Origin: Escherichia phage BAU.Micro_ELP-22
DNA: 64,000 bases
Strand: one strand, 5' to 3'
Sequence record: OR699282.2
Shown in pieces: positions 27,304-27,636 of this stretch; the stretch's first letter is position 1; each line of letters starts with the position of its first letter. The notes beneath the pieces were generated by a model. The model had not been told where the DNA came from, made no database searches, and was given only the letters and a program-made list of their open reading frames with translations. Position numbers and translations under genes: made by a program.

Positions 27304-27636
27304 ATGCTAAATCTAAATATTCAAGGCAACGTTGATATCACTCCAGCAATCCAAGATGCTATTTACAATGAAGCAAAAAGTCTGGATAAGTACCGTACTT
27401 CTTCAGTACTAGACATTGGTGTTCATGTTAAGAAAGAGCATAAAACTCAATATGCTGTAACTTTAACTGCTGGTAGTAAATCAGTAACTGCTGATGATGC
27501 TGATTTGTATAAAGCAATTGTTGAATCTTTTGATAAGATGGAAACTGTATTCAGTAAAGACAAAAGCATTAAATTACACCGCCGAAACCATCCAGAACAC
27601 CCAGTTCTTGATGATTTGACAGAAAACGAAGAGTAA
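27304..27636 (+). CDS. hpf: ribosome hibernation promoting factor homolog (HPF/YfiA family)
   Basis: MLNLNIQGNVDITPAIQDAI...LDKY...V.VKKE.KT...A.G...A...D.YKAIVESFDKME...K.KSIKLHRRNH aligns along its length with E. coli HPF from memory. Confidence 0.6.
   Translation: MLNLNIQGNVDITPAIQDAIYNEAKSLDKYRTSSVLDIGVHVKKEHKTQYAVTLTAGSKSVTADDADLYKAIVESFDKMETVFSKDKSIKLHRRNHPEHPVLDDLTENEE

Follow-up and report, generated by a model that had tools for sequence, protein, structure and literature searches.

An HPF/RaiA-superfamily protein with a RaiA-like tail layout, encoded next to a lysozyme gene in an Asteriusvirus jumbo coliphage

Results

The gene, its neighbors, and its transcription unit

In the window, i.e. 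the whole 64-kb stretch of phage DNA that was analyzed, the 110-aa ORF reported by a first-pass annotation at 27304-27636 was confirmed as an ATG-started gene on the + strand. Its neighborhood comprises an upstream lysozyme gene, with a structured leader and a candidate promoter, and a downstream terminator (Table 1). The TTG start of the lysozyme gene is taken from the PBECO4/121Q annotation, and its product matches the Pfam families Phage_lysozyme (45 bits) and LysM (22 bits). The initiation region of the HPF-like gene is predicted to be unstructured (27270-27330 folds at -6.5 kcal/mol, z -0.27). The encoded protein is overall acidic, with a pI of 5.5 and a net charge of -5; E. coli HPF (pI 6.5) and RaiA (pI 6.2) are slightly acidic too.

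Table 1. Features of the lysozyme/HPF-like locus, in window coordinates
Feature	Coordinates	Strand	Details and basis
Candidate sigma-70-type promoter, extended -10	26217..26244	+	TTGTAA-N16-TGcTATACT; consensus match
Conserved structured leader of the lysozyme cistron	26277..26363	+	GUAGAAAGUCC, hairpin GAGGCU/GGCCUC, then Shine-Dalgarno (SD)-masking hairpin
Gene for membrane-anchored LysM + phage-lysozyme protein	26361..27287	+	TTG start; Pfam
SD-like sequence	27290..27297	+	AAGGAAGG; 6 nt 5' of the HPF-like ATG
CDS of the 110-aa HPF/RaiA-family protein	27304..27636	+	Stop codon included; ORF, ATG start
Folded core domain, residues 1-87	27304..27564	+	beta1, alpha1, beta2, beta3, beta4, alpha2; AlphaFold2 (AF2) model, Foldseek
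C-terminal tail, residues 88-110	27565..27633	+	SIKLHRRNHPEHPVLDDLTENEE; pLDDT below 50
Intrinsic terminator	27647..27680	+	Stem AAAGGGACAGA / UCUGUCCCUUU, loop UUAAU, U-rich tail; folding

The strong terminator that had been proposed at 27650 is borne out by folding. The hairpin (27647-27673, -17.8 kcal/mol) is followed by UUUUCUU, has a z-score of -4.4, and was not equaled by any of 200 shuffled sequences. A simple terminator scanner passed over this hairpin, probably since some of the U-tract is taken up in pairing with the A-tract, but folding shows it to be real. A hairpin with a T-run is found at the equivalent position, with different stem sequences, in every relative examined (10 phages, including PBECO4, 121Q, A4, EcMJ, JNE01, EJP2, Hallingskeid, Munch, and CBB), and the Munch record itself annotates a terminator after the HPF-like gene.

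The accompanying claim, that the gene forms a short transcription unit of its own, is not supported. The lysozyme stop codon lies 16 nt 5' of the HPF-like ATG (11-22 nt in relatives), which leaves no room for a private promoter, and promoter-like hexamers around the gene are no more numerous than expected by chance (33 versus 35.8). A regex scan of the whole window for extended -10 elements was uninformative. The only conserved sigma-70-like candidate lies within the 168-nt gap 5' of the lysozyme gene, where CTTG...TGCTATACTACTTA is kept in A4 and EcMJ although adjacent bases diverge. This element would be a candidate promoter for a lysozyme + HPF-like unit. Because of their spacing and synteny, with the gene pair conserved in five jumbo-phage lineages, the HPF-like gene is probably co-transcribed with the lysozyme gene as first cistron. 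The arrangement differs in Munch, in which an annotated terminator and an extra ORF separate the lysozyme gene from a pair consisting of gp215 and the HPF-like gene; there, the unit would be gp215 + HPF-like gene.

A conserved leader RNA is predicted to mask the lysozyme Shine-Dalgarno sequence

The lysozyme cistron is preceded by a block, GUAGAAAGUCC, followed after 3-5 nt by a hairpin with the conserved loop UUUGUGCAAA, which is invariant across these lineages where the adjacent proteins are only 35-60% identical. The stem of this hairpin is GAGGCU/GGCCUC in most lineages and GCGAC/GUCGC in CBB, i.e. two compensatory pairs, and 98% of cells pair, whereas sliding the partner columns lowers this to 29-54%. 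Farther downstream, an anti-SD is paired with the lysozyme SD in the minimum-energy folds of the window, A4, EJP2, Hallingskeid, and CBB (window, GCCAUCUUUGU/ACAAAGGAGGC; EJP2, CUCCUGUUGCU/AGCAAAUAGGAG; CBB, UCUUCCUUAUU/AAUAAGGAGGA), and the leaders of the window, A4, EJP2, and CBB fold better than shuffled sequences (z -2.2 to -5.1). The leader motif occurs once in the 64-kb window, has no match in Rfam and, in IMG/VR, is found only before jumbo-phage lysozyme genes, with the exception of one probable chance match. Two other identities were considered and rejected. A hammerhead ribozyme, suggested by a GAAAGUC...GAUGAG resemblance, does not fit, since GAUGAG is unconserved and the helix order is wrong. 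A repeated phage promoter is inconsistent with a motif that is unique in 64 kb, with near-matches lying inside ORFs.

The protein belongs to the HPF/RaiA superfamily

The first-pass annotation had assigned the product to the HPF/YfiA family and had suggested an HMM search as a check. When this search was run, the Pfam profile PF02482 (Ribosomal_S30AE) scored 41.0 bits (E 3.3e-10), above its curated gathering score of 23.7 bits, with residues 5-87 aligned on profile positions 2-84 of 88. A phmmer search of the PDB returned hibernation factors (HPF/pY/RaiA) only, the best being T. thermophilus HPF (E 4.9e-7). The AlphaFold2 model, for which 13 phage sequences were used, has a b-a-b-b-b-a topology at a mean pLDDT of 75, with strands at residues 2-8, 36-44, 50-56, and 59-65, and helices at 14-30 and 68-86 (pLDDT 74-88). 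Foldseek comparison of this model with the PDB gave HPF/RaiA/pY structures for all of the best 38 matches (E down to 8e-8, TM up to 0.81), most of them solved on ribosomes. The HPF motifs that had been quoted are indeed present, MLNLNIQGNVDIT at the N terminus, although in a register off by one residue relative to MQLNITGNNVEIT in E. coli HPF, and DLYKAIVESFDKME at residues 67-80. The latter includes DLYKAI (residues 67-72), the D-[ML]-Y-x-A-I motif that opens helix 2, in which Y69 is invariant in phage, HPF, and RaiA sequences. Pfam, NCBIfam, and PHROGs gave no other domain or motif; in the last of these, the protein matches phrog_34864, which has no function assigned, and matches the S30EA phrog more weakly. 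Because Pfam, phmmer against the PDB, AF2 topology, and Foldseek agree, membership of the protein in the HPF/RaiA (Ribosomal_S30AE) superfamily is established.

The alignment to HPF/YfiA had been said to span the whole length of the protein. This holds for residues ∼3-92, by profile and fold, and fails for the tail (residues 88-110), which is modeled with low confidence, is probably disordered, and corresponds to nothing in E. coli HPF (95 aa). The assignment also stops at the level of the superfamily. Scores against the NCBIfam models were 36.3 bits for the yfiA equivalog TIGR00741 (cut-off 40.9), 23.2 bits for the enterobacterial short HPF NF007780 (cut-off 125), and 19.3 bits for the RaiA/YfiA equivalog NF007654 (cut-off 158); with these equivalog cut-offs unreached, membership in either the HPF or the RaiA orthologous group is not established. 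With 110 aa and an acidic 23-residue tail, the protein departs from the short-HPF type (about 95 aa, basic C terminus, no extension), and, with an end predicted to be disordered, it has no C-terminal dimerization domain such as characterizes long HPF (∼180-190 aa).

Core and tail resemble different cellular relatives

Identity to the E. coli proteins is similar for HPF (28%) and RaiA (25%). When the phage-family profile was compared by hhalign, E. coli HPF was aligned with 98.4% probability (score 80.9, 90 columns) and E. coli RaiA with 97.3% probability (score 64.5, 97 columns). The core is slightly nearer to HPF than to RaiA, both by hhalign score and by NCBIfam (23 versus 19 bits). Subfamily assignment by NCBIfam and hhalign was ambiguous, the core being slightly HPF-like and the tail RaiA-like.

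The tail, which is short and compositionally simple, consists of a basic patch (K90, R93, and R94) followed by an acidic terminus. Its RR motif aligns with ARRA in RaiA, and the last 12 residues carry a net charge of -5 in the phage protein, as in RaiA, versus +3 in E. coli HPF. Except at the RR patch and the acidic terminus, the tail sequences of the phage protein and RaiA are unalignable; the basic-then-acidic layout is, however, found in E. coli RaiA and not in E. coli HPF. R94, D104, E109, and E110 are invariant in the Asteriusvirus set, and R94 and the terminal Glu across the jumbo-phage family. The same layout (K/R-R, spacer, acidic end) recurs in relatives with only 16-35% identity, i.e. 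Munch-type Salmonella/Klebsiella phages, Hallingskeid, CBB, and metagenomic relatives.

Ribosome-contact positions and selective constraint

The HPF-ribosome contacts given in the text of a 2025 cryo-EM preprint (10.1101/2025.10.07.680626) provided a list of positions to follow in the phage family. Among these, the aromatic residue at HPF Tyr30, which is described as stacking on A790 (10.1101/2025.10.07.680626), is kept as Tyr or Phe in 13/13 phage sequences, and K29 is kept too. Basic contacts on that list are kept as well (K87 as K/R85, K89 as K87, and H95 as R/K93), together with the lysine equivalent to K80. R83, for which that text gives a contact to m4C1402 (10.1101/2025.10.07.680626), is replaced by Thr in nearly all phage members. 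For this same list, conservation at contact positions is not enriched over other positions in the phage family (0.55 versus 0.56).

In 13 Asteriusvirus-type sequences, 37 columns are invariant, including DLYKAI, VH.KKEHK.Q (beta2-beta3), K78, K85, K87, and R94. Pairwise dN/dS against seven diverged orthologs is 0.12-0.36 at dS 0.55-1.2 (about 0.15), and the gene is under purifying selection. Binding of the phage protein at the canonical 30S site is plausible.

An old component of ∼350-kb jumbo phages

Over this region, identity is 99.9% to Escherichia phage vB_EcoM_E9.1 and 87-99.7% to ∼30 other Asteriusvirus coliphages of 350-380 kb (PBECO4, 121Q, Sharanji, slurp01, phAPEC6, and others). By these matches, the source phage is an Asteriusvirus jumbo coliphage of ∼350 kb, of the PBECO4/121Q group. 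A 100% identical protein is encoded in ten Asteriusvirus phages and carries the public annotation "HPF/RaiA family ribosome-associated protein"; identical copies in Sharanji, slurp01, and UE-S1 are annotated S30EA or HPF/RaiA, and the Sharanji genome paper places the gene among translation-related genes (PMC11895373). RefSeq holds orthologs with 83% identity (PBECO4 gp039 and 121Q gp533), and UniProt names the PBECO4 copy "Ribosomal subunit interface protein."

When 1.84 billion representative proteins were searched with a profile, the Asteriusvirus proteins fell in one 50% cluster. The next tier is a few proteins of 103-116 aa that share the tail (E 1e-13 to 1e-8), and the general cellular family appears only above E 1e-6, no cellular protein among these representatives scoring better. 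The nearest matches for which the source was checked are jumbo-phage proteins. The nearest representative (P0016) is 73% identical to a "ribosome-associated inhibitor" of ∼350-kb phages (Salmonella Munch, 7t3, and SE_PL; Klebsiella fENko-Kae01), and two remote ones (P0018 and P0020) have weak matches to those jumbo phages only. A further candidate relative (P0022), which matches Listeria and Salmonella records, was discarded as unrelated. A search of IMG/VR with the family peptide pattern found two loci only, one in 121Q itself and the other in a 366-kb UViG.

The gene order LysM-lysozyme, HPF-like gene, terminator, small ORFs, CCA-adding enzyme, NUDIX, glutaredoxin/thioredoxin, and macro domain is kept in five lineages: Asteriusvirus, Munch, Hallingskeid, the 366-kb IMG/VR genome, and Mimasvirus CBB. 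Since the CBB gene occupies the same slot, and its annotation notes a similarity to the S30EA protein of GAP32, the "HPF" that Mizuno et al. 2019 reported from GAP32 is, on synteny, an ortholog of the gene described here. Deep isolation in the profile search and a slot conserved in five lineages argue that the gene is an old, vertically inherited part of Rak2/GAP32/121Q-type ∼350-kb jumbo phages and was not captured recently from E. coli.

Over 3 kb, the sequence shows 91 differences from PBECO4, 49 of which lie in 27294-27537, i.e. the RBS and codons 1-78, where divergence is 20%, whereas identity is 99-100% in the flanking lysozyme gene, in the part that encodes the tail, and in the downstream gene. 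Because this divergence is confined to the RBS and core between near-identical flanks, we conclude that the core-coding part was swapped between phages by recombination. Some Salmonella jumbo phages have yielded only truncated copies, of 74 aa in SD-15_S21 and as partial matches in SD-1 and SD-6.

Discussion

A possible role in silencing ribosomes

The classical view is that RaiA opposes the formation of 100S dimers driven by RMF and HPF. The path of the YfiA tail, which heads toward the RMF-binding site whereas the short-HPF tail does not, agrees with this view (10.1101/2025.10.07.680626). The phage protein has a RaiA-type tail and has neither the basic C terminus of short HPF nor the dimerization domain of long HPF, which is why we lean, with confidence barely on the favorable side of even, toward a RaiA-like factor that would silence 70S ribosomes and oppose dimerization. 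It is the tail that carries this reading, because by its core the protein is slightly nearer to HPF. The folded core would, as in cellular relatives, occupy the decoding channel of the 30S subunit in vacant host ribosomes, overlapping the positions of A- and P-site tRNA and mRNA, so that the 70S would be kept silent and protected. The outcome would be RaiA-like: ribosomes parked as 70S monomers, in competition with host RMF/HPF-driven dimerization to 100S. In the infected cell, the protein would be expressed as second cistron of a lysozyme + HPF-like transcript ending at 27647-27680, its own RBS being predicted open and that of the lysozyme masked by the conserved leader hairpin.

In phAPEC6, the HPF-like protein, gp292c, is absent from the table of 62 virion proteins, and the neighboring lysozyme, gp293, is explicitly reported as undetected in the virion (PMC7247149). 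Given the absence of gp292c, the HPF-like protein presumably acts after synthesis inside the cell and is not injected. A literature search found no functional or transcriptomic data on the Asteriusvirus gene. The one result from a related phage protein counts against the mechanism: when the HPF of phage rV5, which belongs to a different lineage, was expressed in E. coli, it was not found on salt-washed ribosomes and the level of 100S was unchanged (PMC6375957). A more elaborate version of the RaiA-like reading, a "ribosome-parking/anti-hibernation" factor whose tail blocks RMF-dependent 100S formation and which is made from an early transcript on which the leader RNA silences the lysozyme, is speculative and on present evidence improbable. 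Were it true, the 70S monomers of starved or stationary-phase hosts would stay quickly reusable for phage mRNAs.

Other readings of the evidence

The rV5 result also fits the main competitor of a RaiA-like role, namely that the fold has been kept while stable ribosome binding was lost in favor of another partner; the protein might then, e.g., titrate a hibernation or stress factor of the host, bind a different RNA, or counter a defense directed at the ribosome. The loss of the R83-equivalent contact and the unenriched conservation at the contacts listed in the preprint text point the same way, as do the acidic net charge, the isolation of the lineage from all cellular sequences, and the behavior of the core-coding region as an exchangeable mosaic patch between near-identical phages. 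The charge argument is weakened by the slight acidity of E. coli HPF and RaiA themselves, the aromatic residue at position 30 and most basic residues of alpha2 are retained and invariant, and no other domain or motif was found. We consider such a re-purposing rather unlikely.

The protein might instead act as HPF does, binding the same 30S site and cooperating with host RMF to drive ribosomes into 100S dimers, which would shut off host translation, or late in infection all translation, around the time when the neighboring lysozyme acts. The slightly better scores of the core against E. coli HPF, the HPFs that head the PDB sequence matches, and the adjacent lysis-type gene all fit this picture. 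It accounts poorly for a conserved 23-residue, acidic-ended tail that is absent from short HPF and has the layout of RaiA, whose own tail runs to the RMF site (10.1101/2025.10.07.680626), or for a length of 110 aa that excludes the long-HPF dimerization domain, and we judge it distinctly unlikely. That the gene is a decaying relic, non-functional or a chance ORF, as the truncated copies in some Salmonella jumbo phages (SD-15_S21, SD-1, and SD-6) might suggest, is effectively refuted by a full-length ORF with dN/dS about 0.15 at dS up to 1.2, by a conserved RBS and terminator, and by synteny kept down to 16-35% identity.

Significance

The gene is already known, being annotated in public phage genomes and having phage relatives described in 2019, so that the finding adds nothing new at the level of annotation; the hypothesis that phage HPF homologs compete with host hibernation factors has likewise been published (PMC6375957). 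The question it bears on is whether hibernation factors encoded by phages bind ribosomes and, further, in which direction they act on host hibernation, promoting or opposing it; the single published test, with rV5 HPF, was negative. The present lineage is a good test case, combining deep divergence with one syntenic slot in jumbo phages that infect E. coli. Its RaiA-type tail gives a falsifiable prediction, i.e. that the tail should lower 100S, and the host genetics (rmf, hpf, and raiA) needed to test it exist.

Comparison with known systems

Among cellular proteins, E. coli RaiA (YfiA, protein Y, b2597, 113 aa) is likewise built from one S30AE domain of ∼90 residues and a flexible tail of ∼20 residues, and shares with the phage protein the RR patch, the acidic end (-5 in the last 12 residues), and the predicted fold. 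It differs in sequence (25% identity), in being host-encoded, and in its regulation. E. coli short HPF (YhbH, b3203, 95 aa) matches the phage core best, both pairwise and by profile, and shares with it Y30, the D-M/L-Y-x-A-I motif, and the alpha2 lysines K80, K87, and K89. However, R83 of short HPF is Thr in the phage protein, and short HPF ends in basic KDKLKQH, without a tail, where the phage protein has 15 more residues and an acidic end. Long HPF, found in Firmicutes, Thermus, and others (∼180-190 aa), has the same N-terminal fold and provides the best PDB matches by sequence and by fold (T. thermophilus 6gzx and Listeria 8uu7), but its dimerization domain, which enables long HPF to form 100S by itself, is missing from the 110-aa phage protein.

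Two groups of phage proteins invite comparison. The GAP32 HPF (AFC21633; Mizuno et al. 2019) belongs to the slot shared by GAP32 and CBB, with the lysozyme, the S30EA gene, the terminator, and the CCA-adding enzyme downstream, and GAP32 K4F6Q6 has 16% identity to the present protein in a structural alignment. The HPFs of rV5-like coliphages (105 aa), by comparison, were acquired separately and are more host-like, and searches seeded from the 27304-27636 protein did not detect them.

The ribosome-binding site of the phage T4 lysozyme (gene e) is masked in early transcripts. The leader described here recalls that masked site, and suggests that the lysozyme and HPF-like cistrons of one mRNA may be translated under different rules.

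Genomic context and allelic variation of the HPF-like gene

The HPF-like gene belongs to a conserved gene block concerned with RNA and nucleotides (see table). Upstream lies a 136-aa ORF whose match to the 2H phosphoesterase domain scores 25.6 bits, below the cut-off of 27. Downstream is a CCA-adding tRNA nucleotidyltransferase, beyond which synteny assigns a NUDIX hydrolase, a glutaredoxin, and a macro-domain protein. Nowhere in the 64-kb window was a tRNA gene found.

Comparison of the window with the PBECO4 locus revealed sharp mosaic patches at 27294-27537 and 28251-28400. 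The first, which takes in the HPF-like gene's RBS and its codons 1-78, is ∼20% different from PBECO4/121Q, whereas its flanks display 99-100% identity. The second lies inside ORF 28277-28687. The opposite case is seen in SP27/Sharanji, in which the HPF allele is identical to that of the window, yet the 3.5-kb regions are only ∼93% identical. These sequence comparisons point to allele cassettes swapped by recombination between phages.

In four Salmonella jumbo phages of 310-326 kb (SD-15_S21, SD-2_S15, SD-1_S14, and SD-6_S16; database matches H58, H59, H61, and H62), the HPF-like gene gave only matches that were truncated or split, of 74 aa or covering 36-71% of the query. These incomplete matches suggest that one sub-lineage has lost the gene or carries it in disrupted form, unless the assemblies are at fault.

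Outside the window, the representative library searched with the phage HPF profile contains a predicted protein of 1605 aa (P0015) that is made up of ∼29 tandem repeats. The repeat unit, 53 aa long (MKTDISVSVKAARKAIHQVEAKLYETVEDSYTKLAGFLNDLVAQNAGYIKAFE), matches profile residues 45-81 (summed E 2.6e-34). P0015 could be a true repeat protein or could have arisen through misassembly.

The lysozyme gene and its structured 5' leader

The LysM-lysozyme gene is preceded by a conserved structured leader, which consists of an invariant GUAGAAAGUCC motif, followed by a hairpin whose loop, UUUGUGCAAA, is conserved and whose stem shows two compensatory pairs in Pectobacterium phage CBB, and a last hairpin in which the lysozyme Shine-Dalgarno sequence is paired with an anti-SD. 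Several lineages have an additional hairpin, variable in sequence, 5' of GUAGAAAGUCC. The leader has no match in Rfam. Its motif occurs once in the 64-kb window and, in IMG/VR, is confined to jumbo-phage lysozyme leaders, bar one probable chance match. The leader is a candidate translational control element for a lysis gene.

Features in the vicinity of the HPF-like gene (L handles, compared loci of related jumbo phages; L001, PBECO4)
Feature	Position	Strand	Remarks
136-aa ORF, upstream of HPF-like gene	25782-26192	+	Sub-threshold 2H phosphoesterase domain match
Lysozyme 5' leader	26277-26363	+	Motif and hairpins common to relatives
Same leader in relatives	L001 6278, L005 2320, L006 2982, L009 476, L010 473, L011 474, L014 3982, L018 12403, L019 2291		
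LysM-lysozyme gene	26361-27287	+	Domain layout in text
CCA-adding enzyme, downstream of HPF-like gene	29232-30344	+	PolyA_pol head and RNA-binding domain

From N to C terminus, the lysozyme displays a hydrophobic segment (TYGVLVCTVLVAAIGFYGF), LysM, and a T4-type lysozyme domain. Several records assign this lysozyme to the tail or baseplate. However, since it has this N-terminal hydrophobic segment and its ortholog gp293 was undetected in phAPEC6 virions (PMC7247149), it looks like a membrane-anchored endolysin of the signal-anchor type rather than a tail lysozyme.
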